From Strigamia acuminata (taxonomy: Eukaryota): DNA of 64,000 nt. A program made the translations under genes and the position numbers. The notes below the pieces were generated by a model. That model was not told where the DNA came from and made no database searches. It worked only from the letters and a program-made list of their open reading frames with translations. The stretch covers positions 21,390,001 through 21,454,000 of the forward strand of contig OX442314.1 of NCBI GenBank assembly GCA_949358305.1, written 5' to 3'. Within the stretch, counting starts at the first letter, position 1, and the number at the start of each line of letters is the position of its first letter. Positions 486 through 63,056 of the stretch are shown piece by piece.

Positions 486-1064
486 ATGGCCAATCTGTAA
501 GTAACCGCTTCTACATCACCTCACATACTAGAGCACATAAAACACTTCAACTTTTGATATATTTTTTTAGAACTTACCAAATGGAATTATTAACCTTTTT
601 ATTTGCAACGTTATTCATTGCCGCTATTTTAATCTTTTACTGCGTCCGAAAATGCACAATTAAAGACAACCCTGGGCAAATTCTGCTAACCAGAGATGAG
701 TGGAATTCAATACCTGATCTACCACCAACCTACACTTCCAATTCTTCATATTTCACACCACCTTTGAACCCAAATCTAGACTTTCAGAATTTAAGTCCGC
801 CGCCACCATCGTACGAATCCGAGGGGGGCGACAATCAGAATCTGCTTGTCAGAGATTCGAATCTTTTTTGGGATTCGAAAGATTCGGATGGGATTCGGAA
901 AGATTCGGATGGGATTCGGAAAGATTCGGGCGGGATTCGGAAAGATTCGGGCGAGATTCGGAAGCCATTGTCAGAGATTCGGTCAAATGTCGCACCCCTC
1001 GTACGAATCACTGGTTTTGCAAAAAGAAATTGTTGAATCCGGAAACCGTACAGCCGAAAACTGA
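486..1064 (+). pseudogene. PY-motif single-TM microprotein, frameshifted by a MITE inserted in its PPSYESL motif
   Basis: Possible exon 486-496 splices (gtaagt..ttag) in frame to 571, with a second ATG at 581. Reads MELLTFLFATLFIAAILIFYCVRKC (TM) ... LPPTY ... PPPPSYES. Removing 820-1001 plus one TSD restores PPPPSYESLVLQKEIVESGNRTAEN*. Confidence 0.8.
820..1001. mobile_element. 182-bp hAT-like MITE
   Basis: 14-bp TIRs CGAGGGGGGCGACA / TGTCGCACCCCTCG (1 mismatch). 8-bp TSD TACGAATC at 812-819 and 1002-1009. Internal ~21-bp GGGATTCGGAAAGATTCGG repeats. Confidence 0.85.
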
Positions 1065-1568
1065 GTTATCGAAAAATATATAAACAGAAAAGAAAAAAAA
1101 AATTTAAAAATCGAATCAAATAACCTTCAAAACAAATTCAATTTCTAAAAAAAACTCTCCAGAGTTGGTCGGATGTGCGCATTTATCAAGGTTAAACTCT
1201 GCCTGCATTGCAAGTCAGCGGTCCCTCGCAATGTTTGTTGAGTCTACAGATTATGACTCACACCTTGTGGAGTGTTCCAGATCCAGTTCAGTTACGAACC
1301 ACTTTTTATAAATAAAAATATTTTGCAAAATTCCGAAAAAATTTCAATCATTTCCCATTTTAACCACGACAGAAAAAAAAACGAGAAAGAAAAAAAGCAC
1401 ATGACATCACCATTTCGTTGGCCTTTGCAACACAACGTCATAAAACGGTTGCGACTGCGCACTATCAAATTAACTCGCGGTCGGGCATCGAAACCGGAGA
1501 AAGGTGAGTGGGAGTTTTTCACAAATTAGCTCCTTCATCTCGTGTTTAATCTCAAACATTTTAGTGCA

Positions 1569-1922
1569 ATGGACAGCCCCTTGCTGACATTCTTAATCAT
1601 CGCCATTGTCATCTTCATTTCTTTTATATTATGCTGTCTACTACGAAGACGGATTAATTACAGTGGTCACATCGTGTCCCCTCCGCCACGACCGGTTCTA
1701 GTGCAACAAGTGCCGCAGAGAGATGTGATCACCCAAGTGCACATCGTAAATGTTTCCAACAACGCATCGGGACCAATGTCGCCTCAAATGATTCCGTCCC
1801 CGAGCGCTCCACCGCTCACCGTATACCACGATCAACCGCCACCGTTCATGAATCTGAATTTTAATGACCAAACTGCACCACCGCCATCTTACACGTCGTT
1901 ATACCCGCACAACAAGCAGTAA
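1569..1922 (+). CDS. Single-TM microprotein with PSAP and PPSY motifs
   Basis: MDSPLLTFLIIAIVIFISFILCCLLRRR ... PSAPP ... PPPSYTSLYP. Upstream intron gtgagt(1504)..ttag(1564); AATAAA just after the stop. Confidence 0.85.
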   Translation: MDSPLLTFLIIAIVIFISFILCCLLRRRINYSGHIVSPPPRPVLVQQVPQRDVITQVHIVNVSNNASGPMSPQMIPSPSAPPLTVYHDQPPPFMNLNFNDQTAPPPSYTSLYPHNKQ

Positions 1923-3239: not shown

Positions 3240-3721
3240 ATGCTTTCTCGTTGCAGTTGGGTTTTGATATTAAACGGCATTTTATTGCTGCCAATAATTG
3301 GTGAGTACAGCAACCATCAAATAAGCAAAATTTACCATTTGTTATTAACGTGAATTTTTGTGTTTTCACTTTTTCAGTTGCCGAAGACGTCGATCCGAGT
3401 GGTTTGCCAAAGCCCATCGCTATAACTATTTGTTTCGTCGTCGGATTGCTAATAATTCTGACCTTATGGCGGACGGTAGTGCAATGCACGGCTGAAATAA
3501 AAACGTTTCACCAACCAGTCGCTGAGCCCTCAGTTATAAATCAACATATGCTATCTGTAGAAAATTCAACACGAATTCGTCGTGCAAGTCACACCTGCAC
3601 CGCGACATCATCTCCAACAACTTTAAGCGTTAATTTACAGCCTCAACTAATACCAGTACCAAGCTCGTATTCTCAGTTGGTATTTCTCAGTCAACCATCA
3701 GCATTTAACAGCACAAACTAA
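3240..3721 (+). CDS. Type I TM microprotein (signal-peptide exon 3240-3300, exon 3378-3721) with degenerate PY tail
   Basis: MLSRCSWVLILNGILLLPII|VAEDVDPSGLPKPIAITICFVVGLLIILTLW, joined by a phase-1 GT-AG intron. Tail PVPSSYSQL. Confidence 0.75.
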
Positions 3722-4708: not shown

Positions 4709-5071
4709 TCACTGCTTGTTTTGCTGATATAACGAAGAGTAAGATGGCGGCGATACGAGACGTTCGTCATAATTTCCACCAGTGGATGTGTCGGTTGGTC
4801 GTGATGGCGGTGGAGCACTCGGGTATGACGGCACTACCGTTACAGTTGGCATGCTCATCCCAGAAGTGGGCATCATATTTATCGGAATGCCTGTTGCGTA
4901 CGCGTAATGTAGTTGAGAAAGTTGAGGTCCTGGTTGAACCACGCCCGGACGTGGTGTAAGCGAAACAACTTGTCCTCGGTGATTACCCCGTCTTCGCAAG
5001 AAATACCAACATACCAAAGAAATGAAGACGGCAACACCAGCAATTATAAGAAAGAAAAAAATGACTTCCAT
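4709..5071 (-). CDS. Single-TM microprotein with PSAP and PPSY motifs; inverted paralog of the 1569 gene
   Basis: MEVIFFFLIIAGVAVFISLVCWYFLRRR ... YPSAPPP ... PPSYSSLYQQNKQ. Shares LRRR.N..G..VS and the terminal NKQ with the 1569 gene. Confidence 0.85.
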   Translation of the reverse strand: MEVIFFFLIIAGVAVFISLVCWYFLRRRGNHRGQVVSLTPRPGVVQPGPQLSQLHYAYATGIPINMMPTSGMSMPTVTVVPSYPSAPPPSRPTDTSTGGNYDERLVSPPSYSSLYQQNKQ

Positions 5072-7891: not shown

Positions 7892-8716
7892 ATGTTTGAT
7901 CGTGTATTATCCACAAAATGTTACTCCATCGCTGGAGTATGGATTGTTTATGCCAGTCTTTCGCTGCCAACAGTTGGTGAGTTGTTAAAAAAAAATACTT
8001 AAACAACTTTATAGGCGTGGCCTCATAAATATACATCCCGTGTTGATGTGCATCGCACTTAAAATATGAGAAAACAAACCAAACTGTCAGCTTATCAAGT
8101 TAAAATTCATTTTAAATTAAATTTTATCATGAAAACTTGGCAATTTACTAATTCCTAAAAAGAGCACTGACCAAACTTATTTCCGCACTGATGAGATGAC
8201 CTTCAAAAAACCCAGAATGCAATTCTAAGTCAAGCTGAACATTTATTTTTCTCTCATTTAGCTGCTGACAGAGTCTTACCAAGACCCATAATCGGAATAA
8301 TCTGCGTGTTCGTCGCAGCAGTTTTATTATTTGTGTGTTGTTATCCGTTATGCCGCCATCGTCGCCGACTATTATACGAGCAACAGCAACAACAGCTCGC
8401 GTATCAGTATCAGCCGTCAGGAGTCCAAGTGATTAATCAAACTGGGTTGCCAGCACAACCGACTGCACCGATCCATTATCCAACTCAAAGTTACGCGACA
8501 TCTTATCCAGTCGTTCAACAAACGCCGGCTTATCCACCGTATCCGACGAGTCCTCCGTATCCACCGACGAGTCCTCCGTATCCACCTGTAGGAGCTCAAC
8601 CGTACCAACAAACTCAACCACCATATCCCACAGAGACATCTCAGATTTCTTCAAATGTACAACCGCCACCGTACGCGGCATTGTTTCCTGATAAGACAAC
8701 GAACACTAAATACTGA
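7892..8716 (+). CDS. Type I TM protein (exons 7892-7976, 8262-8716) with Q/P/Y-rich tail, PTAP and PPPY; WBP1/VOPP1/Shisa-like architecture
   Basis: Hydrophobic leader MFDRVLSTKCYSIAGVWIVYASLSLPTV, phase-1 intron in frame to AADRVLPRPIIGIICVFVAAVLLFVCCYPLCRHRRR. Tail has PTAP, repeated SPPYP and PPPYAALFP. Confidence 0.85.
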
Positions 8717-9241: not shown

Positions 9242-9779
9242 ATGTCTGCTCCAATTTGGCCGTGGATCTTGTTGCTGGTGCTGCTTGTTGGTGGTAAGTT
9301 GTTTAGAATATAAATCACACTACGACAACATTTAAATATTATCAAATTATTTAGTACCAGTAGCTGCCAAATATAAGCCACCTAAACAGACCACGAATAA
9401 AGATGATGATGGTGTTCGGAGACGTAATGCCGGTCGTATTGGCGGCGCCAACGGTGGCCAAAGTGGAGGAAGCGGAGGCGAAACTTCAACAACCGGTATA
9501 ATAGTAGCCGTGGTTTCCCTACTCGTGATGATAGTGCTCGTGGGGTGTTATTGTCGGTATAAAAAATCTAATAATTCAGTTGAAGAGTCTGGTGATGCAG
9601 GCAACAATAAACAGTCACAATATGTCACCAATAGACATCCAAAAAACCAGAACAACCGAAGTCTTTCAGCTTCTGGAGATTCGACAGCTCTCTTTTTCAC
9701 ACCAGCAAGACGATTTTCAACTCGGAGTACCGTTATTGTACCTAAACATACATACAACCGAACCACACCAGTGGGATAG
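9242..9779 (+). CDS. Type I TM microprotein with Gly-rich short ectodomain (exons 9242-9293, 9355-9779); no PPxY
   Basis: Signal peptide MSAPIWPWILLLVLLVG|VPVAA across an in-frame phase-1 intron. Ectodomain GGANGGQSGGSGG, TM GIIVAVVSLLVMIVLVG, then CYCRYKK. Confidence 0.8.
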
Positions 9780-10578
9780 CAATTCATTCAACAATTTCCT
9801 CAATTATATATATATACATCTCCTCAAATTGTTTCATATTTTTATCAAGAAATGTTAATTTAAAAAATATACATTTTTATTCAACCACATTTAGTAGCAT
9901 GCAACCGATGCAACTGTTTCTATATTTGCTAATCCAGCACTTGAACTAACAGCAGAAACAAATAAACAGTGACAGAATACTACTAAATGATATTCTTTTC
10001 AGTTTACTCGACTCAACATGAGCCACCATTTCACTTCAACATGTTCCAAGGGATCATCTTTTAGCCTAATAATTCTAATTATCGTATTTGTTACATCGTT
10101 AATAATTGTTATAGCAATATTGGGAATTACCGAAGCAACTATTATATTCACAGTGATTGGTGTGATAGTGATATTGATAATTGTTATCATCTGTTGCTGC
10201 CAGCGAACTTCGGTAAAGGATCGGGCAGGGTAGAATATTTTCGACTCGGATTCCTTTCGACCGCGTTTTTTTTCGACCGGATTTTTTGCGACCGGATTTT
10301 TCTCGACCGGATTGTTTGCGACCAGGATTGTTTCCGATCAGGATTGTTTGCGACCAGGATTCTTTTCGACCGGTTGGATTGCGACCTGGAATTTTATCGA
10401 CTAGGATTCTTTGCGACCAGGATTTATCTCGACCGGGATTCACTTCGACCAGGATTCCTTTCGACTTGGTCGAAATTTAGGTAGTTTACTTTTATAAATG
10501 GACTTGTAACGTGTCAAATTTATTCATTTTTATATTTTCTTTCATCGGTACATATTTGAACCAAAATTTTGTTTTTAG

Positions 10579-11609
10579 TTTATGGCGAACGAATCTAAGG
10601 TTTGTGGAGAAGGGCTATTTCGGTAATGGCTCGTGATGTATAGCAGCACATAACTGCTCCATTTGGGTAATTTTATCCTTACTTGTTAAATTATTATTGA
10701 AATTTATGTTTACATTTTTTCTTTGTAGCAAGTGTCCGTTAATGATTGGCTAAATTGTACGGCTACTTGCGATTCGAATGGTGAAGTAGTGGGCACAGTT
10801 TTGACCCAACTTCTGCACGGCGTTGGTAATTAGAAAAGGATATCGAGAAAACGATTCGTAAGGAATATATTTCTAGTTAATATTGATTGAAATTAAAATG
10901 TATATTTTTTTTAATTGCAGCCAATTTATAGAACAAATGTTTGCAATCTAAAGACGCTAGAGTCCGATCTGGGTGACAAAATAGAGACAAATTCGTCGAA
11001 AAATTCAGCAGATAATTCAGCTCAAGATGTTCGAAGTGATCAATCGACGGCCGATTCTTGCGATCCAGCCAAACGAACGCCAGAGAAGACATCTGAGTCT
11101 TATAAAGAGACGCGGTCACGGATTACGGAATAGTTTTTATGGATAACGTACCGGTAAAAATCTAGAGACTCGTTTTATTGAATTGGTGGAAGTAAATGAA
11201 TATTTTATGGTACTTTAGTTTATTTACTTCTGTTACCTCTCGAGTATTCTATTACTCCTTAGCGATTTCATGCATTTTAATTGTATTTTTTATTAGATAT
11301 CAAATAATTTAATACCCCAGGACGAAATTACGCGATTAACTCACGCAAATACAATGACCTCATCTGATCTTCGTTCGTTTGAAATTGCATCCATTAATAA
11401 AGTGAGTGGAGATTAAAAATTAATATTATTTTAATCTAATTTTAATCTAATTTTAATCCTAATTTCAGGTGGCTTGGAGTCCAAACTTCGGATCGCATTT
11501 ATTAGTGGCTTCGGGTGAAAATTCAGGATTAATTAGGATCCATCGAATTCATTGATTGCAGCAGACAAAAGTAGAAAAACTACGGGTTAAATTGCAGACG
11601 ATGTTGTAA
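10579..11609 (+). pseudogene. GTF3C2: 3' exons of TFIIIC subunit 2 (WD40), decayed
   Basis: Spliced fragments ..GYFG..SIW|QVSVNDWLNCTATCDSNGEVV..RKRF|PIY..ASINK|VAWSPNFGSHLLVASG..SGLIRIH match my recollection of the GTF3C2 C-terminus (RRFPIY, HKVRFSPN, SGLVRIH). In-frame stops at 10634 and 10831, frameshift near 11518, 5' exons absent. Confidence 0.75.
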
Positions 11610-11805: not shown

Positions 11806-13118
11806 TCACATTTCTTCAGTTTCAACAACAACAGGCGCTTCATCATCATCTTCCCTATCAAAATCCCACTTGAATGTTTTCGTTAAATATTTTTTTAAAC
11901 CTTCTACCCTTTTCTACAATTTCGTGCGGTACTTGTTGGTTCCCGTTCAAATTGGAGAAGAAAGAATGCAATGTGTTGACGAGGAAGTTTTCACGACTGA
12001 CAATATCTACAAAGAAATCGCGAGGAATTTCCTGAAGTTGGTGATGAAGTACAAAAATGAATTTTGAATATAAATCTGCGTATTTCGTAAGAGCATTGTC
12101 GCACGAGCACAGCAAGTGGATTAAATGTTTCCATTCTTCAAATGCGTCGTACACCTGTCCTAAAATAAAACAAATAAAAGCCATTTGAAGTTCTCCGAGA
12201 ATGTCTTCAGGATCTGTATACGATTTGAGCATTTGATCTAAAGTATAGGTCAAATCTAAACTGTTTTGTGATTTCACAAAACATTTAAGTTACTTTTTTA
12301 AAATCAAAATTGTCTTTTTTTTCTTCTTACTTTTTTCAGGAAATTTGGAAAAACGAATTTCCGTTCCGGGTTTTTGACACATTTTCGGAAGAAAATCATC
12401 TAGTTTTGGTCTCTTATTTGTTCTTGTTGACGATTCACTCTCATCAGTTATTAAATGGGAAACTGACGAAATTTTTTTGTTTAATGGCTGCACCCGTTCT
12501 AAAACTGTGTCTAAGAGAATAAGTTTTGTATAAAATATTTTACAAAATACGAAATTTTTTTCCTTACCAGTCATGTAGTAGGTCTGGAAAATCCATTTTT
12601 TCCAGTTGTCGTATGGATAAGCGCCTAAATGTTTGTCAAGCTCCCTTAAATTCTCTTTAAGCCTGTCTATTTCTTCATCTGAAGTGACTTCATCTTTGAT
12701 ATCTATATTGAACGATACACAATTCAGGTTACAGACCAATTTAAACGTTAATTAAAATAACCTTCGAGATATTTATCCCATTTTGTAACAACTATTTCTC
12801 CTTTATTGAATTAATGAAAAAATCCAGTTCTGGGTGCCATTTGGTTGTCCCGACTAACTGCACTGAAATAAAGAAAATAAATTGTGGTCATTAGTCATTG
12901 CAAAATCCAAATCCAAATTTTTAACCTCGAAATTACCTGTAATATACAAAATGAATGCCCAGAGGAATCATCTTGACACCTTTGATATCGGTTTCCACAT
13001 TCTAAGTATTGTGATCTATTCCAAATTCAGTTTTTGGTGGTACATCTAAAAATATTAATGTCACACCTTCGCGAAATAAAGTCTTTGCAACATCAGGATC
13101 CATATCTTGTGAAGCCAT
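11806..13118 (-). pseudogene. AAR2: AAR2 (U5 snRNP assembly factor) homolog, intron-containing pseudogene
   Basis: Motifs EFGID..., KGVKMIPLGIHFVYYS, LDKHLGAYPYDNWKKW, LGELQMAFICF and DFFVDIVSRENFL. TAG replaces the conserved Trp at 13002-13004; acceptor lost/deletion near 12265-12285; frameshift at the T-run 11890-11896. Confidence 0.9.
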
Positions 13119-13981
13119 TGTCAATTTTACACAGGTACACGGGTTTTAGCAATGTCGCTCTCTCACTTATGATGTTTGGCCTTGGTCCAAGGTTTGGCAC
13201 GTGATTGGCACTCCTCTCCAATTCTTATCGCGTCACTCGGTCACTCACCCTACATTTAGCCAGTGACTTTGACCCATTTTTCACCCCTTTGTTTTTCAGT
13301 GAAGAAAACACAAAACTTAGGGGGCACAGAAAGGCTTGGGTGCATTGCACAACTCAAAAAACACATCAAACTCAAGTTGTGTGTTCTTACAAGGAATGAC
13401 ATTTACTTTTGTGGCTCAATCAGAGGAAAAAAATGTTTGAAATTAGCAAAAATGCAAGTGCAAAATGGAGAGGTCAGGGGCAAATTGAAAAATCGTCGGT
13501 GCAGACGACAATTAAATTAAATCAAATGAATAAAACCATGCAATATTTAGCCCAATTTAGTCTCAGGAGAGAGCATAATATTTTTCCTCGTTGTTTTATA
13601 ACCGTTTGTAGTAAATTATAGTTTACTAAATTTGAATTTCGAGCTCGTTTTTGAGCTTTTTATTCTGGCGATAGATGGCGACACGGTGAAATAGCTAATT
13701 CTAGTTTAATTAAAATAAAATAAAGTTTTTTGCGAGGAATTGCAAGAATTAGTAAGTCGGAGCACTTTGGATCGAAAACTTTAATGCATTTTGTGGCTAA
13801 ATGGAAGTCGATCCGTACTTAAAAAAAACATGTAATATTTATTCGCTCTGGTGCAGTTATTTTCTTCTGTATAACGGCAAATACAAACGGCAATAAATTA
13901 ATGTATAAGTTTTTGCAAGTAAAATAAGTCTTATTTCATCAAATAATCAGATTTTAACGAAGGTGATATTGTTTTGAAAAC

Positions 13982-14551: not shown

Positions 14552-14553
<2 letters not shown>

Positions 14554-14609
<56 letters not shown>

Positions 14610-14622
14610 GTGTGTGTGTGTG
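14554..14622. repeat. (GT)n microsatellite
   Basis: Near-perfect GT run. Confidence 0.95.
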
Positions 14623-35322: not shown

Positions 35323-35899
35323 AAGATTTGTGATATCCGATGTCTTTAAATTTATTTCTGTAATTAATATCTGTATTAATAAAACAGTGTTTGTACGTCC
35401 GTAAATGTTCACCCACTCCCAGAAGGGCTCGACAGTAAAATTCGGCATACAGACAGAACAGTTACCTAAAAGAAAATATCATAAATCCGAAAAAATAATA
35501 AGATGTGCAGATAACGCAGATACAGCAGCGTGAGTATGAGTTAGAGGGCGCTGATGTGGAGGATGTTAGCATCCAGCATCTCACCTCTAATCAGAATTCG
35601 AAATTCACAGGACTTCTGACCTTTTAAACGAGAGATTAAATTCCACAAATTTGATCGTCAGCAGTTGAGACTTCACGAATGAACTGAATTACCACACTTT
35701 AATAATGAATAATAATATTTAGAAAAAAAATCATCTTTAAATTATAGTTTTTCCTTTGTAATTTCAAAACACAACGCTAGAAGAAAAATGCACTTCCCAT
35801 ACGAAAATGCACTTTTTCACAATTAGTTTACAGTACTTTTAAAATGTTGGGAAGATGCCATTTATGAATACTCATGTGTCCCTGTCATAACTTGTTATA

Positions 35900-36665: not shown

Positions 36666-36900
36666 TATATGCACAAATTTAAGTTGATTTAGAAATAAAT
36701 GAATCCGATTTTGATGGGAGCATAAAACAACAGTTTACTCGTGGAAAAATACAAGCACACGTGAAACGCGAAAAACTCATTGCCTTTTTTAGTAAACTTA
36801 ATAACTAACATAGTTAACCACTTTAAACATAACACAATTTATAACATGACTACTCCAAGTCCACTGAAGCCTAAATTTGACCCTGTGATCTCCCGTGTTT

Positions 36901-48656: not shown

Positions 48657-51600
48657 TGTAATATTGTAATATAATGTGCGGCCACTAGAGGGCGGCATAA
48701 AGGGTTCGAGATTACTTTGAATGTAGGCTGAGTCCGAGAGGACATTCCGATGTTAGTTACGAATGAATAAACATTGCTATCCCAGGTGCTCTTGTGTATT
48801 TATGGGCATTTACAGACATTACATTGGCGACGAGTGAATCGTGGACGTGAGTGGATTGTATTTAGTGTGTGGACAGTGTACAAACAATTGTTTTGAGCCC
48901 GGGATCGTTGTTAGCGAGTGAGTCAGTGGAGCCAAGATGGCGTCGCCCGAGAAAATCGACGTGTCATTAGCAGGTGCGAGTACGGTGAAGCCGGTGTCGG
49001 CAGGATGGATGCAGGCGACGGGAGTTCAGCCATTTGATATGCACGGTGAGATGGCGACCCAAAGTCAACGTTGGACCCGTTGGTTGGGCCGATTGGAGAT
49101 TTTTCTGTCGGCGGCCGGGATTTCCGATGATGGACAGAAAATGGCGATGCTTCTTCACTATGTAGGTGAGGATGTGTACGGTGTTTATGAGGCGATGCCG
49201 ACAAAAGGCACGTCCTATAGTACAACAAAGGACATTTTGACAGCGTATTTCGCGCCGCAGAAAAATGAGGATTTTTGTATGTATTCGTTTCGCGCCAGCA
49301 AACAGGAGGCGTCCGAGACGGTGGATCAATTTTGTGCGCGATTGCGTGGACTTGCTGTGGGATGTGGGTTCACGGACCTAGATAAGGAGCTGAAAGCCCA
49401 AATAATTTTCGCGACGTCGATGTCGAAATTGCGGCGCCAAGCATTGCGTGCGACGAACTGGAAATTAAAAGAGTTACTGGATGCGGCGAGAAGCTATGAG
49501 AGCTCTGAGTGGCAGGCCAAACGAATGGAGGAATCCGGAGGATTTGAGCGGTCGTTGGACGTGAATGCGGTGAGAGGAGCCACTCCGAGGAGGGGAGATC
49601 GAGTACAGAGTGCGTTTAGAAAGGAGGGAGCGGCCCCGAAGCTGTGTTTCAATTGCGGGCGCGCTTGGCCGCATCGCGAGGGAATGCCATGTCCAGCTAA
49701 AACAATTAAGTGTCATGGGTGCGGGAAGTTGGGTCATTTTATTAGGTTTTGCCGAGTAAAGTCAGCCAGTAGCGAGCGGAAGGCGGTCGGAGCAGTGGAC
49801 AAGCCGGTTGGAGCAGTGGAGTGGGATGTGGAACTGGACGAGGAAGGAAACCCCATTTTTGGCATCACGGTTGGATCAATCGGGACTAAGCGGAAGATGC
49901 CACGTATGGAGTTGTTGATGGGCCGCTGTAGGATGAAGGTGATGTTCGGTGTCGATTCTGGGGCTCACGTGAATTTGTTGAGTCGGGAAGTGTTTAAATC
50001 AATTGTGCCGTTGCCAAAATTGAGAATGAGTTCGGCAAGATTAATGCCATATGGACAGACTAATCCTTTACCTTTATTAGGCGTGATGACAACATTTTTA
50101 GAGTATAGTGGGCTGAGGACGATGACGGAAGTGTACGTTGCGGACGTGGACGGTGACTCTTTGTTGAGCTGTGATACGGCGGAGGAGCTGGGATTAGTCA
50201 AGATGGTGCGGACTGTAGAAGAGGGAGGCATGAAGGAGGAAATTGTGGCTAAGTATCCCGAACTGTTTCGTGGAGTAGGTAAATCAAAAAATCACGTGGT
50301 TCATTTACATGTGGACGAAAGCGTGCCACCAGTGGCGCAGCGTTACCGCCCGATACCGTTTAGTTTGAGAGGTCGAGTAGAGCGGGAGTTAGATCGTATG
50401 GTTTCGGAAGGGATTATCGAAAAAGTTACTGAGGAGATGGGTCCGACGCCGTGGGTGTCGCCCATTCATTGCGTCCGAAAACCTAAGGACCCTGACCCTG
50501 ACGCCATCCGAATATGTATTGATGCGCGCGAGTTGAACTTTGCGATCCAGAGAGTGCGACATACGTCGCCGAGGTTAGAAGATTTGACCATACTGGCGGA
50601 AGATGCGACGGTCTTCACGAAGGTCGATATGGCGCACGGGTTCCACCAGTTCGAGTTGGACGTTGTCTCGAGGATTTTGACCACTTTTGCGACACACGTT
50701 GGACTTTATCGATTTTTGCGTTTGTTTTTTGGGCTAAATTGTGCGCCTGAGATTTTTCAGGATTTGGTGCGTCAAATTTTGGAGGGGTTGGCGCAGGTGT
50801 TGAACATCATGGATGACATTTTCGTGGTCGGTAAGAGAACAGCGGACCATGATGTGGCGGTATATGCAGTGTTGGATCGATTGATGGGAGAGGGCTTGAC
50901 ATTGAACGCGCAAAAGTGCGAATTTAGGAAGTCTGAATTAGTGTTTTTTGGACATGTCTTTTCAGCTCGAGGTATTTCGGCCGATCCAAGGAGAATTGAT
51001 GCGATCAGGGCGATGAAGACACCTTCCAGTGTTTCGGACGTTAAGAGTCTTCTGGGAATGGTCGTGTATTGCGGTCGTTTCATCCCGAGGTTGGCAGATT
51101 GGACGAAACCGTTGAGAGAATTGACGAAGAAGTCAAATAAGGAGTTTGAGTGGACCGAGTGGCATCAGAAGGCGTGGGACGGTATTATGACGGAATTAAG
51201 TGATGGAAAGGTCATGGCATATTATAGCCCGAGTGCACGGTTACACTTGACGGTAGACGCCAGCCCGATAGGTTTGGGAGCGATTTTGGCTCAAGAAAAG
51301 GAGAGGGAGGTGGTACGAGTGATCGCGTATGCGAGTCGATCGCTGTCGGATGTTGAAGCCCGTTACTCGCAAATTGAGCGAGAAATGCTGGCTGTGGTCT
51401 GGGCTATGGAGTTTTTTTATTTGTATTTATTTGACAATTTTTTTGTGCTGTTCACAGACCACCAACCATTAGTTAGCATTCTGAAGAACCGGAGGGCGCG
51501 ACCGTCTGTGCGGCTGGAGCGCTTGTGCGTGCGCGTACAACACTATAATTTTGAAGTACGTCATACGAAGGGTAGCACGAATCCAAGTGACTACCTGTCA

Positions 51601-53428
51601 CGGCATCCGTCACCAGGGGCAGGTGAGATTGAAGTAGCAGTAGTCGAGATGCTGGAAGAGCATGTGGATTTTGTCGTCCAGACTCGGATTCCGGCGACAA
51701 TGACGGTGGAGGAAGTTTTGCGCGAAACTGAGTCGGACGAGATATTGAAGAAGGTGCGTGCGGCTTTGGAGAGCATTGGCGAGGAGGCGCGAAAGCGCTG
51801 GGATGATGATCAGCTCCGCCCTTATGCGACGTTAAAAGAAGAGTTGTCCATTTCAAAGAGTGGGATAATTTTGCGGTCGGACCGGATTGTGATTCCCGGA
51901 AAATTACAAGCAAGAGTGGTGGAACTGGCTCATAGGGGACACCAGGGAGTGGTGAAGACCAAGTCGTTGCTTAGGCAAAAGATTTGGTTCCCTGGTATGG
52001 ATAAGCGAGTGGAGGAGAAGATTTCGAGGTGTTTGGCGTGCCAAGCTACGGTTCCGCAGGCGCGGAGGGATCCGCTGTTGATGACGGTGTTGCCAGCGGG
52101 ACCGTGGCAACAGCTGGCGGTTGATTTCGCGGGCCCTTTTCCTGATGGGGCGTTGCTGTTCGTTTTGATCGACGAGTTTTCGAGATTTCCGTTTGTGGAA
52201 ACTGTGGCTTCGACGGCGGCGTCAGTGGTGTGCCCAATTTTGGAGCGACGCTTCCTGGAGCAGGGGTTGCCGTGCTTGATTAAGTCAGATAATGGCCCCC
52301 CTTTCACGTCGCGGGAATTTACACATTTTTTGGCCGATTTTGGAGTGCAGCATCGCAGAGTCACCCCCCTATGGCCAGAAGCCAACGGGGAAGTTGAGCG
52401 ATTTATGCGGACAATAAACAAGACGGTGAGGGCGGCGAAGGTGGAGGGAAGGCCGTGGAAGCGCGAGTTGAGCGAATTTCTTTTGAACTACCGAGCCACT
52501 CCACACAGTACGACTGGGAAATCGCCGGCGGAACTTTTGCACGGGAGAGTGGTGAGAACACGTTTGCCAGCCATTTGGAGAGAAGCAGAGGAGCTGCAAG
52601 TGCGAGAGAGGGACTTGTTGGAAAAGGCTAAAATGAAACGATATGCGGATGAACATCGAAATGTGAGAGACCATGACCTGAAAATTGGGGATCGAGTTTT
52701 GGTAAGACAACCGAAGGTGAACAAATTTTCTGCGCTATTCGACCCCGTGCCGTTGGTGGTTTCCGGTGTAGCAGGGACTCAGGTCACAGCGGTGAGAGGG
52801 CGTCAAGTGTTAGTGCGAAATGCGTCCTGTTTCAAGCGGATTTGGGCGGAGGAGAGTGAGAAGGTTCATGGTGCGGTGGGTGGAGATCGTGTGGTGATGG
52901 GTCGAGGTCGTGGTGAGGAGGAGGAGTTGGAATTGGAGGGTGAGTTTGCGCGACCAGATGAAGATCGAGTGTTGGATGAGCGAGAGGAGGTTCGCGGACC
53001 CGAGATTCGGAGGCAGGATGAGGCGCAGGGATTGAATGAGGACCTGCAGAGAGAGGCCCAGAGACCTGAGGTTCGAGTACGAGAGGAGGTGCAAGAGCCA
53101 GTGGTGCCGATGGTGAGGAAGTCTGGACGGAAGACAGGCCCGCCAGATCGATACGGGGATTGGCAGACGTAATTCAGGAACTACCGGATTTGTTTTATTT
53201 TTGATTTTTTATTGTATGTGTTTTGTTGAATTGTTGTTGTTGTTTTGGAGAAGGGGAGGGGTGTAATATTGTAATATAATGTGCGGCCACTAGAGGGCGG
53301 CATAAAGGGTTCGAGATTACTTTGAATGTAGGCTGAGTCCGAGAGGACATTCCGATGTTAGTTACGAATGAATAAACATTGCTATCCCAGGTGCTCTTGT
53401 GTATTTATGGGCATTTACAGACATTACA
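48657..53428 (+). mobile_element. Full-length Ty3/Gypsy LTR retrotransposon (Mag-like)
   Basis: 167-bp TG..CA LTRs (48657-48823, 53262-53428), identical by eye. TSD TGTGT, PBS TGGCGACGAG (tRNA-Ser-like), PPT GGAGAAGGGGAGGGG. Confidence 0.97.
48937..53172 (+). CDS. Gag-Pol polyprotein (1411 aa)
   Basis: Two zinc knuckles (CFNCG..H..C, CHGCGKLGH..C), protease VDSGA, RT IMDD, RNase H VDAS, and integrase HHCC with DNGP/E, in PR-RT-RH-INT order. Confidence 0.97.
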   Translation: MASPEKIDVSLAGASTVKPVSAGWMQATGVQPFDMHGEMATQSQRWTRWLGRLEIFLSAAGISDDGQKMAMLLHYVGEDVYGVYEAMPTKGTSYSTTKDILTAYFAPQKNEDFCMYSFRASKQEASETVDQFCARLRGLAVGCGFTDLDKELKAQIIFATSMSKLRRQALRATNWKLKELLDAARSYESSEWQAKRMEESGGFERSLDVNAVRGATPRRGDRVQSAFRKEGAAPKLCFNCGRAWPHREGMPCPAKTIKCHGCGKLGHFIRFCRVKSASSERKAVGAVDKPVGAVEWDVELDEEGNPIFGITVGSIGTKRKMPRMELLMGRCRMKVMFGVDSGAHVNLLSREVFKSIVPLPKLRMSSARLMPYGQTNPLPLLGVMTTFLEYSGLRTMTEVYVADVDGDSLLSCDTAEELGLVKMVRTVEEGGMKEEIVAKYPELFRGVGKSKNHVVHLHVDESVPPVAQRYRPIPFSLRGRVERELDRMVSEGIIEKVTEEMGPTPWVSPIHCVRKPKDPDPDAIRICIDARELNFAIQRVRHTSPRLEDLTILAEDATVFTKVDMAHGFHQFELDVVSRILTTFATHVGLYRFLRLFFGLNCAPEIFQDLVRQILEGLAQVLNIMDDIFVVGKRTADHDVAVYAVLDRLMGEGLTLNAQKCEFRKSELVFFGHVFSARGISADPRRIDAIRAMKTPSSVSDVKSLLGMVVYCGRFIPRLADWTKPLRELTKKSNKEFEWTEWHQKAWDGIMTELSDGKVMAYYSPSARLHLTVDASPIGLGAILAQEKEREVVRVIAYASRSLSDVEARYSQIEREMLAVVWAMEFFYLYLFDNFFVLFTDHQPLVSILKNRRARPSVRLERLCVRVQHYNFEVRHTKGSTNPSDYLSRHPSPGAGEIEVAVVEMLEEHVDFVVQTRIPATMTVEEVLRETESDEILKKVRAALESIGEEARKRWDDDQLRPYATLKEELSISKSGIILRSDRIVIPGKLQARVVELAHRGHQGVVKTKSLLRQKIWFPGMDKRVEEKISRCLACQATVPQARRDPLLMTVLPAGPWQQLAVDFAGPFPDGALLFVLIDEFSRFPFVETVASTAASVVCPILERRFLEQGLPCLIKSDNGPPFTSREFTHFLADFGVQHRRVTPLWPEANGEVERFMRTINKTVRAAKVEGRPWKRELSEFLLNYRATPHSTTGKSPAELLHGRVVRTRLPAIWREAEELQVRERDLLEKAKMKRYADEHRNVRDHDLKIGDRVLVRQPKVNKFSALFDPVPLVVSGVAGTQVTAVRGRQVLVRNASCFKRIWAEESEKVHGAVGGDRVVMGRGRGEEEELELEGEFARPDEDRVLDEREEVRGPEIRRQDEAQGLNEDLQREAQRPEVRVREEVQEPVVPMVRKSGRKTGPPDRYGDWQT

Positions 53429-53669
53429 TGTGTGTTCTCCGTAGAGTATTTCACCATTTGCAGTGTTGACCACAATTTTTGGCGCATTTTTCAAATTTCC
53501 CAACTGCCCATGTTGCGACGACATGTGCCGTGACGCTCCAGAGTCCATGATCCAGGGTATATGCTGATACCGAGACGACTGTTGCAATGTACAACTTGTT
53601 GGCAGATTTTTTCGCATTTTTGTCCGCATTTTTCCATGTTTTTACACGCCAGTCCGCTCGTATGTGCAA

Positions 53670-54134: not shown

Positions 54135-54451
54135 ACTACAGTTCGCGCCCGGTATCTTGAAGCTAAATTCGTACTGCGCATCCCATTCTGCGCAGACGAT
54201 TTTCTAATTCCAGTTGTTATTTAGCAGTATTAAGCCTAAAATAAAGTAAATAAACAACAATAAACTCATCATTAAAAGTAATTTACACCATATGATCAAA
54301 ACAGTGTTGCTTATTTACTTTATTTTAGCATTATTAGGCCTAATAACAGGCTTAATACTGCTAAATAACAACCGGAATTAGAAAATCGTTTGCGCAGAAT
54401 GGGATGTGCAGTACGAATTTAGCAATCAAGGTACCGAGCGCAAACTGTAGT
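54135..54451. mobile_element. Palindromic MITE with ~100-bp inverted arms
   Basis: ACTACAGTTCGCGC..AGTATTAAGCCT against AGGCTTAATACT..GCGCAAACTGTAGT; not present at the paralogous site near 45705. Confidence 0.8.
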
Positions 54452-55565: not shown

Positions 55566-55696
55566 GCCTCCTACAAAGTCTTCATGAGTGATTAGCTGAA
55601 CTGATAGGCACGTTCCTACACATTGTTGATAGTATGTAAAATCACAGGTCAGGGGGCACCACCCTGGGTGCCATTTTTTCCCTAAAGATGCTTTTT

Positions 55697-56860
55697 TAGG
55701 TCCGAAAATGCATTATTAGGTCCAAAAATGCATTATTAGGTCCAAAAATGCATTACAGAGGGTGAATACTCAAAAATGAAACACTTTAAATGTGGAATTG
55801 CTCGTGATTGGCACACCACATTTCAATTTTGTTTGTTTCATCATTTAATCTGAACATTAGTCTCGATTTACAAGAATGGACATAACTGTCAGTTCAAATA
55901 TGGCGCCATGTCATGGTGCAGAAGTGGATGTTATGGTCAAAATGGTTTCCAAGGAGGGTTACTCACAAAAACCGAAAAACAAATGCTTGAAAGTTGTTCG
56001 AGTGCCATCTAGCAGGTGAAAAGTGTGCAAATGTAGCAACATTTGATGATGCTTACATCTATCTTGACTACTGTAATGGTATTCGGAAAATTTGCTACGT
56101 TGTTCCTGGTAAAAATGTGCCAGAAGAGTGGCTTGTGAAAAGCTGGCCATGTGGCTTCATGGTGATTGGAGGTTAGACTGGCAGAAGACGATTTCCACTT
56201 ATCAGAATGCCAAAAAAAGTGAAAGGTAACTCAGTATACTACCGTGACTTCATACTAAAATCATATTTGGACAAAAGAAATTCCTTTCCTGTATCCAGAA
56301 GAGATGAACAAAGTGACCTCACATCATGACAAAGCTTCCTCACACACTGCCAAGCTCACCACAGTCTACCTTGAAAATCTGAAGGCTACAGTTAAGTTTA
56401 AATATTTTAGTTAAGAGGACATACCCACCAAATCATCAGACATCAGTCCCATGAACCTTTTTAGATTTGGTTTCTTAAAACAGCACCTGTTTCATCGAAA
56501 GACCAACACCATAGAAGGACTATGGAAAGTTGTTTGTGATGGATGGTCAACTCTTACACCTGAGAAATGCAGAGAAGTGTTCCAGTCTTGGAAACAAGAT
56601 GCAGGGCTGTTAGTGTACTCCATGGGAGACACATTGGACAAACTAAGACAATTCGCTGACGTGTATTAAAGGAAATAAATTAAAAATTGCAGTGTTTCAT
56701 ATTTGAGTATTCACCCTCTGTATTAGGTCCAAAAATGCATTATTAGGTCCAAAAATGCATTATTAGGTCCAAAAATGCATTATTAGGTCCAAAAATGCAT
56801 TATTAAGTCCAAAAATGCATTATTAGGTCCAAAAATGCATTATTAGGTCCAAAAATGCAT
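55697..56860. repeat. 20-bp minisatellite (TAGGTCCAAAAATGCATTAT)n split by a Tc1/mariner insertion
   Basis: About 3 units at 55697-55755 and about 7 units at 56721-56860. Confidence 0.9.
55756..56720 (+). mobile_element. Degraded Tc1/mariner transposon (965 bp)
   Basis: TIR CAGAGGGTGAATACTCAAA(A/T)ATGAAACACT with TA TSD. Transposase remnants HHDKASSHTAK and PTKSSDISPM are frameshifted. Confidence 0.85.
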
Positions 56861-57316
56861 TTTTTGATTCGAATTTATTTTTTACAAAAATGCTTACTGT
56901 AACTTCTTTTAAAGGGGGGGTGGGAGTGGGGCGCCAGCATGCCCAAAAAACACAAATACACTACAAGTATACCCTAGGCAGTGCTGGACTGGCCCGGAAG
57001 GCTACCGGGAATTTCCCGGTGGCCCGTGGCAACCCCACCGTAGCCTGACCCTGTGGCCCGACCCATTCAGATTTCCCGGTACTAAATTTGTACACAGTCC
57101 CAAAATAATTTTTTTTAAATTACGACAAGAGGTAAGGGGCTGATTTTTTTTAAGCCCAGGGCGCTGAAAAGTTTTAAGAAGGCCCTGGAGCCCACTAACT
57201 AAACTGAACACCATTACCATATTATTACCATTTCTAGATCAATATAACATTTGTACGTGTGGTAATTATAATTACAGCTATATTTTACTTATTACAGAGA
57301 GCACATTAGACATACG

Positions 57317-57555: not shown

Positions 57556-58196
57556 ATGTAAAAATCTGAACATACATAAATAATTAAATGTAAAATGTAA
57601 AAGTAAAAAAATGTCTTTTTTTTATTATAAATTTTCGTGCAATACCTTGTTCAATTTACGGTAAAATTTCAAAATTGAGTTCTGTACTCCGTATTATTGT
57701 ATTTTTGCGAATGGCCGAATAATAGGTGGGAGATTCGGGAAGATTTGGTAAGATTCAGTACCATTTTTTTTCCCAAAATTATACATTTTTTTCCAAATAT
57801 TTTTATAAAACAAAAAAAAGATCAAAATATTAACAAATATATTTTATTTCTCTTGAACACATGAAAGCCTATCTGGAGCGAGAAAATTCAAGTGAAAAAG
57901 ATTCAGAATCTTTTTGGGATTCAGAAGATTCTGTTCAGGAGATTCAGAAATAATCTCATGCAAATCAGCCCGGGATATTACGCGATATTGCGAGATCATA
58001 GCCAAATCTAAGATTCGGGATTCCATAATCATGAAGATTCAGAGGAATTCTGAAAGATTCAAAATTCCCGTGAGAAAGGTTCCGGCGATTGTCATACCCC
58101 GCGCAAATAAAACGTAACATGATATCACCTCTCATCACATCTCTGCTGTCCTTGCAATAAATGACATCTGGAAATTTTCTATTGTCGATAAACGAA

Positions 58197-61102
58197 ATGG
58201 CCAACTTTTCCATATGGTTTATAGCGTGCATCTTAGTGGGTTTTGTTTCAAACGGTGAGTTACAAACTATTACTAAAATACATAGAACAAAATAATTCTT
58301 ATGATGTATTAGAAAATATATATACATTATAAATTAGATTCACACTCTCGATCTTTCGGAAAAGTTACTGCACCAGTTGATACTGGTTTCAGGCAGAGCA
58401 GTTATTTTAATGCTTGGCAAATTGTAAACAAAACTAACAACATGACCCAACCTATGCAAGGTAACTTTTAAAAATGTAGAAATAAATATAAAGTGGAACA
58501 CAATCGATTATTAATAATAATTCCTAACGTTTTTAAATTTCGTTTCACGCAAAAGAGACTTCCATATTTACCACCAATACTACTAACCAGGTACGCAGTG
58601 TTTACTACGTGCTTAAAGATTCCAGCGTTACTATTTCATTTTCGTACGCAATTTACCGAAAAAATTCACATTCCAAGACAAAATTAATACTTCAGCAAGA
58701 ATACGATAACGGAACAGTAAATAAGATATTTGAAAGTCATGAAACAAATGGAAAAATGCAAACAAAATTGATTTGCTGTCCTCATGCTCAAATACCATAC
58801 AGGGTAATTAAAGTTTAAGCTAGTATATAAGGAATTTAATAACAAGAAACAGTATTACACCTTGCGGTTCATTAACTTAAACAAAACATACCATAATTCA
58901 AAATACCGGTATTTCAGTTTGCTTTTTACGCTGAAGTAACAGAAAACGACCAAATTGATTTTGGCGAGATTGAAATGTTAAAAGTTCACGGTAAGAAAAA
59001 AAAAAACATCCTCTTGAAAAACAGAAATAACAGGATTAATTCGAATCAGGTTGTTTCCAAACATCAAGCACAGTCGAATGCAGTTTTGATGACCTTTGCG
59101 ACTGGACAATTGAAACCAAAGGAACAGAGTGGAAAATTGCAGGCAAAAACGATCCGACTGTAACCAAACCTGGTAAATATACATCAATATCAACATTGCA
59201 GTATAACAAATATTTATTTGTTTATAATATCTACATTTCCTCACAGTCAATGATCATAATGACAACTTTCTATCGCTAACTTACAACTCCAGCAATTCCC
59301 AACAACAAATCCAGTTGAGCGAAATCACAACAACAGCAATGTCCAATCATTCGTCCTATTTGCAAATATCATTTGCATATTTTATTCTCTCTTCAACAAC
59401 CTCTACACCCGGATTAAAATTAAAAATTACTCACCAAAACACTCACTGGATATTTGATTCTCGAAAAATGAGAACAGATACCCAGAATTGGAAAAATGAA
59501 ACTATTTGTACAAACGTTGACACCAAGGTCAAATAAGTTCCTAACACTCGTACAATATTACAAAATTTCCATAATAATAATCAAATAACCTAATTTTTAG
59601 AACATCTACACTGGCACCCAAGTTATCTTTCAAGGAGAGGTTCAAGAAGGAACTGCAATTGGTCTTGACAATGTTACAGTTGGAGAATGTCTTAACAGAT
59701 TAAGTCTCAAGTGTTCGTTTGACAATGATGTTTGTGGCTGGAGTATGGCTTCAACAAGTTATGATGCAGCGTGGGAAATAATAAGAGAATCGCCACACAT
59801 CTCACCAAGAAATCAAAGTACCTTAAATTAATATATTTGTTTTGTTGTGTATTTTAGTGTGCATTTTTTCTTCAGACAACCCGTTTCTTCGAATTAGTCC
59901 AAGCAACGAAACAAAACAATTTGCGCGACTTTCAAGTCCTTTATTACTTGCTTCGAATTTTCTTCATTTTATCATGTGGTATTTTGTAAATGATAACCAA
60001 AAAGAAAATAGCACGCTTAAAATTGGATTGTCGTCGTCTTCTGCGCCATTTTCTCTGCTGTGGAGCTACGAGCGACGTGAAAATGTTAATGCACAATGGA
60101 GAGAAATTAATTTAAACATCACAGATATTCGAGAAGATTCCAAAGTTAGCGATAAATTACTTTTTTAAGTTGGCTAACCTGTAATCATTTTTTTTTTACT
60201 TCAAGATTTTAATCAATGCCATGGTTCACCCAGGATCATATCTCGCGATTGACGATATTGATATTCTTTATGAAGGAAACAGGATTAATGATAAACCAAC
60301 AAGTACTAACTAATAAAAAGCAATTCTTCGATCAAACTGCCCACATACCGTATTACCCCGCTTTAAGCTGCATGCCGTCGGATATGGCTTTACCAGGATT
60401 TTGGAATTTCAGTTTATACCGGCAAAGTGAAACATGCCGGTACAAGTGAAAAAGCTGGTGAATAATTACTCTGTATTGTTAGCATTTGAGCCTGAAATCT
60501 GAGTTTTCTTAATTTTCTGAAAATTATTACTAAAAATTTGTATAGATTTAGGCAGATTTCCTACTGTTATGAACGGGCTTTTATCGTTTGTGAACGAAGT
60601 TCATTCTTCCATAAAATGTGACAAAAAACATGTTAATTTTTTTAAATAAATTCGAAAAGTGAACGTTCATGAACTTGGAAAAAATTAGATAAACGCGAAT
60701 GTGAACTTTGTAGGTCATGAACGCGAACTTGAGCGTGTTCATACTTTAGTGAACGAGAAACAACACAGAAAACAGGGTAATAGGAAGAGACATCCAAATA
60801 GCATGATAAAAATCAGGACCCTATAATGAAGCAGTAGGCAAACTTTCAGTTACTACAATTAATGAAAATTCAAATAAATATTTTCAGAAAGGATTGAAGA
60901 TGATGACACTACTTCAAAGAACATACTTTACACAAGTATCGCAGCAGATGACCAAACCGCAACAAAATTAATAAACAAAAGTATCACAGAGACGAGATAT
61001 CGTAAAGTATCTGGCAATGGAGAGAAAACGTTTCACATTTTACAAAAGGATTGTTTAATCCAACTAATAACTGCATTTTTCATTTTGTGCAACCTTAAGT
61101 AG
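58197..61102 (+). CDS. Secreted or GPI-anchored-like multi-MAM-domain protein (multi-exon; possible stop/frameshift near 60311)
   Basis: Signal peptide MANFSIWFIACILVGFVSN. MAM-like motifs ECSFDDLCDW, VIFQG..IGLDNV, CSFDNDVCGW, ARLSSP and LAIDDI across GT-AG exons. Putative last exon with a hydrophobic end (LIQLITAFFILC). Confidence 0.7.
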
Positions 61103-62640
61103 AATATTTGCTTGCATGTAAAGCAGTAAAGCAAATTCAATTAAGATTTTTAATATAAAAACTACTGCAACACAAATATATAAATAAAATAACATCTGAG
61201 TACGAAAAAAACCAATAATAATTGTATTTCACGCCCAATGGAAGTCAATTAGAGAAATTGTTGCCTATATACGGAAAACGGCTCTAAATCAACAGTAAAT
61301 GAAAATTTAGCCAAAAAAATGTGAGGAAAATATTCCCAAGAAAAACCCAGGACCAAAACCAAAGTTAATACCGTACACGCTACAAATAGTACGAGAACAC
61401 AACGACAAGACTTGTGTTTTTAGCACATCTACACAGACATCCAAGTTTTTTCCAAGAAGGGGTTCTTACGAAGCAACTGCGATTGGTATTGGCAATGTTA
61501 CATAAAGAATATCTTCAAATAAATTTGTTCTTTATCGAATCATGTGCGATGTCAATGTATTATGATTTTATCACCAGGTTAGGCAAAATTAGTCACCAAT
61601 CAAGTAGCTAAAAGTCCAATTTGGAGGTGGCAAATTGGTTAACCTCAGATATTTGGCTAAATATTCAATTATAATTTTTAATTGATGCAGTTATGATAAG
61701 TCAAAAAAATCACATTTTGAATTTTGAATAAATTGTACAATGTGTTAGTATTATTTTTACAAAATCAATTTCCAAATTTTGGCATGATGCGGGGAATTTG
61801 ACTTTTCATTCGCCACACCTGTGGCCAGGAGTAGACAAAAATAAAAATAATTCCGGCGCCAGTTTCTTTTTCTCAAGAGCCAGCATATCTATTTTGCAAA
61901 TACGAGCAAAGAAATTCAGACGCCAGGTAAACATTTTCAGGCGTCTTGGCGACCCAACACCCGGTATTTGTCCACCCCTGCCCGTGACCAGCTGACCGCC
62001 TTAAAAATAGGTTGCCCACTTCTTTTTCCCGAAAATCAAAACGATAATAATAGTAGAAATAATAATAATAATACGTACTCACTATTTGCGCAAAATGCAG
62101 TCCTCATCGTGATTCTATAAACAAACAAAAAAAACATAAATTTTCTCTTCTAAAAATTTCAATTCCAGTAATTATTACCACCGATATATTTTTTGTCAGG
62201 TAGTCTGCATAAAACTTACACGTCCTGCGATTAATAAAACTATAATGTGCCTTTGGTTTTTCCCTGTAACCAAACCCCGTTTCAAAGTACATCATTCGTC
62301 ACATCCGCATGTTTTACTACACAGAAGTCATTCATCGCATTGCCAGGTAAGAACCTAATCATTTCTATGTCAATATTAGAGCTACTGTATATTCAAAAAT
62401 TACTCCTCATTTTCAAATTGCTTCGCCAATGTGAACAAACAGTATTCATTGTTTCCGATAATTAAAATGGCCATGTTTATGATTAAAATAAAAATAAAAA
62501 AACAAGATGTGGGAAGCAAATGCAAAATGGGAAGTGGTTTCTCAATACCCCTATTCATTTGACGTTTATTAAAAACATTCCAGGAACCTAAATATTCTTA
62601 TCTATACTTTTTGAAACTCAAATGTTTATTCTAAACCTTT

Positions 62641-63056
62641 ATGGCTCGGTTTTCAATAAATCCACATCTGTTTCTCCTCTCATTTTGCATACGAGGTAAG
62701 TTTCAGTATCAAGTTTTGAATTTTCATTTAAATTTATCATTATTTTTTTTTTTTTTACATTTATTCAAGGTGTTTTAGCATCAAGTGATATCGTTTTGCT
62801 GTATTTACCACCAGTATCAGTATTTGCTTTATTTGGAATTGCTATAGCCTACGTAATATCTCAGATTTATTGCTCATCTTGTTGTAAAAAATCGCAAACT
62901 GATCTCGTGTGTCACGTGAACGCGACTGAAGAAGAATTTCAACTTGGAAACATTAATGAAACGTTATTAATAAACATACCACTCAATGCTAGCGATTCGG
63001 TGCAACCGGGGTACACACCACCACCGTCGTACCAATTTCTATTCCTGAATAAATGA
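62641..63056 (+). CDS. Type I TM PY microprotein (exons 62641-62695, ~62770-63056)
   Basis: Leader MARFSINPHLFLLSFCIR|GVLA across an in-frame phase-1 intron. TM followed by CSSCCKK; tail PPPSYQFLF. Confidence 0.8.

Follow-up and report, generated by a model that had tools for sequence, protein, structure and literature searches.

Commissureless, MLANA (MART-1), the STMC6/Shisa-like proteins, yeast Rcr1/Rcr2 and C. elegans PYT-1 share a cytosolic [L/P]PxY (PY) motif behind a transmembrane (TM) anchor. The Comm-Robo1-Nedd4 complex needs the PY motifs of Commissureless (PMC12101832), and the regulation of Robo1 by Commissureless needs the Robo1 TM segment (PMC5578492). MART-1, a binding partner of Nedd4 and Itch, itself undergoes K63-ubiquitination (PMC3364180); WBP1L, which is palmitoylated, binds Nedd4-family ligases and, together with CXCR4, is a further precedent (PMC6991692); and PYT-1 removes one receptor guanylyl cyclase and spares its paralogue (PMC9882311; bioRxiv 10.1101/2025.08.13.670147). 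The STMC6/Shisa-like proteins are defined by a six-Cys ectodomain (C*C*CC*CC) after the signal peptide (PMC5578492). Here we describe an array of 31 loci of the TM-PY type in a stretch of 64,000 nucleotides from the centipede Strigamia acuminata (contig OX442314.1, positions 21,390,001 to 21,454,000 of the forward strand; hereafter the window). Judged from their sequences, the encoded proteins probably work like the adaptors named above, but we assign them to none of these families.

Six-frame scans and hand annotation placed the loci at 486..63056, 30 on the plus strand and one on the minus strand (4709-5071). Sixteen are intact and encode [PL]PxY after one TM helix, four are intact and lack a PY motif (L04, L09, L14 and L17), and ten are broken; in the remaining locus, L01, the frame is open although a 181-bp insertion interrupts the PY motif. 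The open proteins are 56-217 amino acids (aa) long. These counts agree with a sequence-only reading of the window, which had proposed about 30 loci, all but one on the plus strand, proteins of roughly 55-220 aa and about a third of the loci broken. The loci are as follows.

L01, 486..1036, plus strand: TM-PY gene with exons 486-496 and 571-1036; open; 181-bp element (820-1000) in the last PY motif
L02, 1569..1922, plus strand: 117 aa, no signal peptide; PSAP and PPSY-xxL; 61-nt 5' intron at 1504-1564; orthologue T1IVM2 (75%)
L03, 2657..2998, plus strand: 113 aa; PSAP and PPSY-xxL
L04, 3240..3721, plus strand: 134 aa; signal exon 3240-3300, TM exon from 3378; no canonical PY
L05, 4709..5071, minus strand: 120 aa; old paralogue of L02 (37%); sole minus-strand member
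L06, 6306..6485, plus strand: broken; PY tail remnant without TM
L07, 7234..7457, plus strand: broken signal-exon gene; donor GT lost, early stop
L08, 7892..8716, plus strand: 179 aa; signal exon 7892-7976, exon from 8262; PTAP and PPPY-xxL; orthologue T1IPZ6 (70%, same splice)
L09, 9242..9779, plus strand: 158 aa; signal exon 9242-9293, exon from 9355; 45-aa Cys-free ectodomain; no PY
L10, 10003..17344, plus strand: broken; a 6.9-kb inverted-repeat element separates the TM part (10003-10223) from the tail (17156-17344); hydrophobic stretch long; PY absent
L11, 17714..19237, plus strand: 217 aa; signal exon 17714-17771, exon from 18642; Q/P/Y-rich tail with PPAY and PTAP
L12, 20296..20652, plus strand: 118 aa; LPEY and PPCY; old paralogue of L16
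L13, 21008..21244, plus strand: 78 aa; LPTY only (weak member)
L14, 21692..21862, plus strand: 56 aa; no PY
L15, 22150..22452, plus strand: 100 aa; PPEY-xxLFP
L16, 22867..23163, plus strand: 98 aa; LPTY and PPCY
L17, 23619..23801, plus strand: 60 aa; no PY
L18, 24951..25214, plus strand: 87 aa; PPAY-xxLFP; old paralogue of L26
L19, 25310..25600 (approximate), plus strand: broken L26-type copy
L20, 26027..26287, plus strand: 86 aa; two PPxY; 97% identity to L24
L21, 33433..33705, plus strand: broken L26-type copy; early stop at 33658, PY lost
L22, 34191..34305, plus strand: broken; 5' part of an L27-type copy
L23, 34370..34660 (approximate), plus strand: broken L26-type copy
L24, 35062..35322, plus strand: 86 aa; two PPxY
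L25, 43058..43290, plus strand: broken L18-type copy; frameshift
L26, 43491..43754, plus strand: 87 aa; PPAY-xxLFP; lysine-free
L27, 44250..44507, plus strand: 85 aa; two PPxY; 73-74% identity to L20/L24
L28, 46034..46306, plus strand: 90 aa; Cys-rich TM end; PPSY-xxLFP
L29, 53668..53848, plus strand: broken; 3' part of an L27-type copy
L30, 57317..57552, plus strand: broken L28-type copy; frameshift and stop
L31, 62641..63056, plus strand: 113 aa; signal exon 62641-62695, exon from 62770; PPSY-xxL

A TM-like 19-mer followed by [PL]PxY was found in 17 frames on the plus strand and one on the minus strand, a total of 18 against about 0.05 in shuffled sequence (2 x 60 local Markov shuffles; mean 0.02-0.03 and maximum 1 per strand). 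One of the 17, the LPVY of the broken L21, is probably a chance match. A single TM helix leads into a Pro-rich, PY-bearing tail in 17 of the 21 open proteins, and the ectodomain measures 0-13 aa in 20 of them. Cys was present at the cytosolic TM end in all 21, within a loose 18-residue window, and 19 keep the positive-inside rule; the tail is therefore predicted to be cytosolic. The motif is extended to PxY-xx-L in 14 of the 16 intact PY proteins and to xxL[F/Y]P in ten. The plan proposed from sequence alone needs two corrections: five genes carry a putative signal-peptide exon, so that there are two layouts, and the PY motif is missing from four intact genes. Against architecture-preserving shuffles, 20 of 231 protein pairs exceeded z=4 and seven reached z=7, so that similarity beyond a few lineages is slight, as had been stated for all but recent duplicates.

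The hydrophobic first exon of five open proteins was recognised by eye and by orthologue, and in all five it splices in frame into the open TM exon through a phase-1 GT-AG intron. A 7-mer is common to four signal exons, including that of the broken L07, and lies exactly 7 nt before the donor position in each, which partially supports one gene family. The signal-less genes start directly after a splice acceptor, and a strict donor lies 40-130 nt upstream in 9 of 17, three of the nine being recent paralogues, compared to 10.7% of random positions. A profile of 14 array proteins retrieved T1IVM2 among 1923 candidates, and 33 proteins were matched by profile among 1.84 billion, three of them from Strigamia maritima (T1IVM2, T1IPZ6 and T1IPZ7). 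All three are labelled 'uncharacterized' and are 53-75% identical to array proteins; the consecutive accessions of T1IPZ6 and T1IPZ7 hint that these may be adjacent genes. The upstream exon of L02 agrees with T1IVM2 only once the 61-nt intron is removed, and spliced L08 is 70% identical to T1IPZ6 end to end and has the same intron. Collectively, the splice signals, the dN/dS (omega) values below 1 among intact paralogues described below and the S. maritima gene models indicate that the array loci are real, separately spliced genes, as the sequence-only reading had assumed. Its claim of lineage specificity holds at least to the Strigamia lineage, with the qualification that S. maritima homologues of two lineages are already in UniRef, uncharacterised. 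A profile of alignment A1 gave two matches among solved structures (E=0.43 and 0.91), taken as chance. Six unnamed TM proteins of 98-121 aa from other sources (P0028, P0035, P0037, P0038, P0041 and P0048) also end in PPxY-xx-LFP.

No Pfam family scored above its cut-off for the array proteins, and RCR, Comm, Hemotin and MLANA appeared weakly; the scan took in 20 of the 21 open proteins, L27 being left out and L20 and L27 being covered only through or beside L24. For Commissureless (PF15957) the best score was 14.2 bits (L15) against a cut-off of 27. The likeness lies in a short single-pass protein with no signal sequence and a Cys near the cytosolic TM end: 16 of the 21 open proteins have no signal exon, and all have the Cys in the loose window given above. 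The extended L/PPxY motif resembles that of Commissureless, which reads LPSY-acid-acid-x-hydrophobic, and has the +3 Leu in 14 of 16, but the array consensus is PPxY-xx-L-[F/Y]-P. L12 and L16 carry an LPxY and PPCY pair as Commissureless does, but in reversed order. The lumenal sorting segment of Commissureless is largely absent from the array, and flies have a few Commissureless genes compared to the 31 loci here.

MLANA (PF14991) reached 15.8 bits at best (L08) against a cut-off of 27. MLANA/MART-1, TMEM207/TMEM52 and MYCT1 are small TM-PY proteins of similar size, but form vertebrate clusters, and we know of no gene array for any of them. The language-model neighbours of L28 were MLANA (clusters at 0.92 and 0.91), TMEM207, MYCT1 and VOPP1, which we take as a lead only, the MLANA family call being flagged as doubtful by the Atlas output (169 shared features; 5 of the ten best matches). 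Rcr1/Rcr2 (PF12273) reached 16.3 bits (L01) against 27.8. Like the array proteins, PYT-1 and Rcr1/Rcr2 are small TM-PY adaptors restricted to single lineages and alike in little except the motif; they number one or two genes each against 31 loci, and PYT-1 is reported from nematodes only.

With the STMC6/Shisa-like proteins (WBP1, WBP1L, VOPP1, CYYR1, TMEM92 and arthropod Shisa5-like) the array shares the single TM helix, the Cys at the TM end and the Pro-rich PY tail. The Pfam families WBP-1, Shisa, CYYR1 and VOPP1 matched none of the 20 proteins scanned, all 21 ectodomains contain no Cys, and the sole six-frame match to the six-Cys pattern lies on the reverse strand of L11. The likeness to WBP1, VOPP1 and Shisa drawn in the sequence-only reading thus survives as a way of working and not as family membership. 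STMC6/Shisa-like proteins have a signal peptide, and the five signal-exon genes could be ectodomain-less derivatives of them; the nearest language-model clusters of L02 are arthropod Shisa5-like (0.89), again a lead only. Because no Pfam cut-off is reached and the six-Cys ectodomain is absent, we file the array under no known family. The feature of the functional class, a cytosolic [L/P]PxY behind a TM anchor, is present, with the positive-inside rule kept as described and the motif conserved in orthologues.

PSAP, PPSY and the +3 Leu are invariant in all four L02-lineage proteins, bearing out the proposal of a conserved PY tail. P[S/T]AP, which binds TSG101, was found in 5 of 15 tails, compared to 0.21 expected. 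The linker, which runs from the juxtamembrane cluster to the last PY motif, holds two Lys in 673 residues of 15 proteins, where base composition predicts 25 (none of 2000 shuffles was as low), and the non-centipede TM-PY matches have 15 Lys in 861 linker residues. By contrast, a Lys lies among the four C-terminal residues of 12 of 16 PY proteins, compared to none of the four PY-less ones and 166 of 701 background frames (24%). It was found in 10 of 14 unique PY proteins (p=2e-4) and in both orthologues (T1IVM2 and T1IPZ6), and not in T1IPZ7. The lysine patterns were noticed after inspecting the sequences, so their p-values are post hoc. L01, whose tail derives from the insertion, is left out of the terminal-lysine and motif counts, and the 'unique' counts omit L20 and L27 (near-duplicates of L24) and L21 (broken).

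The right half of the window consists of 9-10 kb tandem duplications of 69-94% identity and contains many dead copies, which supports the birth-and-death turnover suggested earlier. The dN/dS comparison of recent paralogues, proposed with the sequence-only reading as a check, gave omega 0.16-0.45 among intact pairs (counting method), and omega was below 1 in L20/L24, L20/L27, L18/L26 and L12/L16. Maximum-likelihood tests against omega=1 in six intact pairs gave p=0.026, 0.037, 0.061, 5e-4, 1e-6 and 9e-5, five of which reject, with the limits that L20, L24 and L27 are not independent and that the last two pairs are saturated. Pairs including a broken copy gave omega 0.8-3.9. Coding DNA had diverged beyond the flanks in two of six young pairs, mostly in the TM region, and the other four showed no coding excess. 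First and second positions differed at 33 of 172 sites in L26/L21 (6.0% in the flanks, p=3e-9) and at 20 of 148 in L28/L30 (6.1%, p=7e-4). CpG hypermutation was considered as the cause of this excess and rejected, the excess persisting at non-CpG sites and in transversions. Four-fold sites in L28/L30 differ at 1 of 27, matching the flanks, which suggests positive selection in this pair.

The TM and juxtamembrane segment is 88-96% identical between orthologues (26/27 and 22/25 residues) and about 45% identical between paralogues (11/25 and 12/25), a comparison based on two orthologue pairs. Outside this region the orthologues agree at 21 of 28 residues in the signal peptide and at 66 of 101 and 50 of 73 in the tails. 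The TM region thus has the pattern expected of a specificity-bearing segment, and the proposal that the TM helix carries specificity fits these sequences.

We lean, if only slightly, towards the view that the array encodes Nedd4-ESCRT (endosomal sorting complexes required for transport) adaptors of the Commissureless/MLANA/Rcr kind that evolve by birth and death and whose targets are likely selected by the TM helix. Each protein consists of one TM helix with an N-terminus almost absent outside and a Cys and basic cluster inside, and would sit in the endosomal or plasma membrane. By analogy with the known families, the cytosolic PPxY-xxL would bind WW domains of a Nedd4-family ligase, the five tails with P[S/T]AP would bind ESCRT-I as well, and the Cys cluster is likely palmitoylated. 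The TM/juxtamembrane segment would pick the partner, because it is fixed among orthologues and changed among paralogues, and the partner would be ubiquitinated, routed into multivesicular bodies and destroyed. Composition suggests that the linker, being lysine-free, would spare the adaptor arm from ubiquitination, and that the single C-terminal lysine may accept ubiquitin in a controlled way when the adaptor itself is sorted. The 9-10 kb tandem duplications supply new copies, of which some diverge fast and many end up broken. The ionotropic-receptor, gustatory-receptor and Dscam families are expanded in S. maritima (PMC4244043) and are no more than candidate targets.

Several results weigh against this view. 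A at -3 (9/17 against 37% background) and AATAAA (10/22 against 35%) were not enriched, none of 469 candidates received a score in a word-indexed search for homologues of the nine lineages of alignment A2, and 10 of the 21 open proteins, sought as exact sequences in a 15-billion collection, were all absent from it. The ligase model cannot cover all genes, since four intact ones lack PY. Linker Arg is also below expectation (17 against 31), the Lys deficit being far greater (p=0.002). In a test of single origin, 11 of 12 left-out lineages were outscored by 24-30 of 30 non-centipede TM-PY proteins, and L03 by three; these outgroup proteins had been picked beforehand as the best among 1.84 billion, which makes the test harsh, and one ancestor of all loci was not demonstrable by family profile. 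The omega of 3.85 for L28/L30 (p=0.043) is uncorrected and one of nine tests. In L26/L21 the four-fold sites are raised too (5/29, p=0.027), so gene conversion of the flanks may explain the excess there, and both fast-diverged copies, L21 and L30, are now broken. Worms mutant in both wwp-1 and hecw-1 showed no change in PYT-1 function (bioRxiv 10.1101/2025.08.13.670147), and a PY motif therefore need not mean a Nedd4 ligase.

A less probable alternative is that the proteins are themselves cargo or ligase tuners, like MLANA/MART-1: bound to the ligase, ubiquitinated on the terminal Lys and sorted into multivesicular bodies or exosomes, they would activate or drain the ligase in particular cells with no separate target. 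The MLANA clusters as best feature matches of L28, the K63-ubiquitination of MART-1 bound to Nedd4 and Itch (PMC3364180), the activation and destabilisation of ITCH by WBP1L (PMC6991692) and the terminal Lys and PSAP all fit; yet such proteins would not require some 20 TM helices that differ from one another and each stay 88-96% identical between orthologues, the lysine-poor linker argues against a bulk substrate, and the MLANA call is the one flagged as doubtful. We consider it improbable that the proteins are palmitoylated signalling scaffolds whose PY motif binds non-ligase WW proteins of the Yorkie, Kibra or WWOX type, or whose YxxL is a tyrosine sorting or phospho-signal. PPxY does bind group I WW domains in many proteins (PMC9882311), PYT-1 did not need WWP-1 or HECW-1 and YxxL occurs in 14 of 16 proteins, but the co-conservation of PSAP and the lysine pattern point to the ubiquitin/ESCRT route, and the extended motif resembles that of Commissureless.

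More doubtful still is that only two or three old genes (L02, L05 and L08) function and the remainder are decaying copies and chance frames in a duplication-prone region. Ten broken loci, a wealth of mobile elements in the region and homologues that turned up only for the L02/L05 and L08 lineages speak for it, whereas omega below 1 in the four pairs named above, PY-xxL kept across lineages at 20-35% identity and a lysine pattern spanning lineages speak against it. That the loci are alternative last exons (TM and tail) of one upstream gene, as their shared strand and preceding acceptors might suggest, is very improbable given the five signal-peptide exons of their own, nine more nearby donors, acceptor-to-ATG distances that vary in phase, L05 on the opposite strand and the separate gene models in S. 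maritima.

Other features of the window were annotated alongside the array. The 181-bp element in L01 (820-1000) has a 9-bp target duplication and keeps the frame open, giving a new C-terminus; related repeats lie at about 15891-15966 and 57899-57950. The 6.9-kb element that splits L10 (10224-17155) has imperfect terminal inverted repeats and an 8-bp target duplication, and is a probable DNA transposon with captured host genes. It carries a broken, intron-bearing AAR2 copy (11809-13124, minus strand; two stops and one frameshift), whose best match is Strigamia maritima AAR2 (83% over 124 aa; the other 17 matches are at most 64%), and the end of a WD40-like gene at about 11354-11555 with a weak GTF3C2 match (E=0.38). 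A Ty3/gypsy-type long terminal repeat (LTR) retrotransposon at 48657-53428 has one open 1411-aa frame (reverse transcriptase, RNase H and integrase); its identical LTRs and 5-bp target duplication indicate a recent insertion, and a Pol beta-barrel fragment (53405-53629) adjoins it. Two ionotropic-receptor-like genes on the minus strand (27764-29200 and 36904-38400), 94% identical, were duplicated along with PY genes; their Lig_chan match (E=2e-6) is below cut-off, and their adjacency is not evidence of targeting. A BED zinc-finger frame (38931-39938, minus strand) is a probable hAT-type transposase, MAM-domain exons at 59339-60170 (two halves, E about 1e-4 each) belong to an unrelated gene between L30 and L31, and palindromic or inverted-repeat elements lie at 35896-36669, 54135-54451 and 55672-56867, the last with 20-bp tandem subterminal repeats.

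A full-text literature search, made mostly without subscription papers, found no description of such an array and no paper pairing Strigamia with PPxY, and the main text of the S. maritima genome paper makes no mention of commissureless or Nedd4 (PMC4244043). The protein type is already known, and a repertoire this large was not found in the literature searched. Tentatively, the array might be a diversifying membrane degradation repertoire, a TM-helix counterpart of the F-box and BTB adaptor expansions, in which each helix would direct a different membrane protein into a shared Nedd4-ESCRT route, fast-changing receptors or pathogen membrane proteins would drive episodic positive selection, and PY-less members would be protective decoys. 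Known TM-PY adaptors have been found singly. The array, by contrast, offers a panel for asking whether a TM helix alone encodes the target: its intact variants number about 20 and include members that naturally lack PY, and both young duplicates and pairs of orthologues and of paralogues are at hand. No more than three homologues from S. maritima turned up in the databases, which suggests that a class of expanded microprotein families escapes gene annotation. As a design rule, a lysine-free arm combined with one terminal lysine can be tested and may be of interest for engineered membrane-protein degraders.

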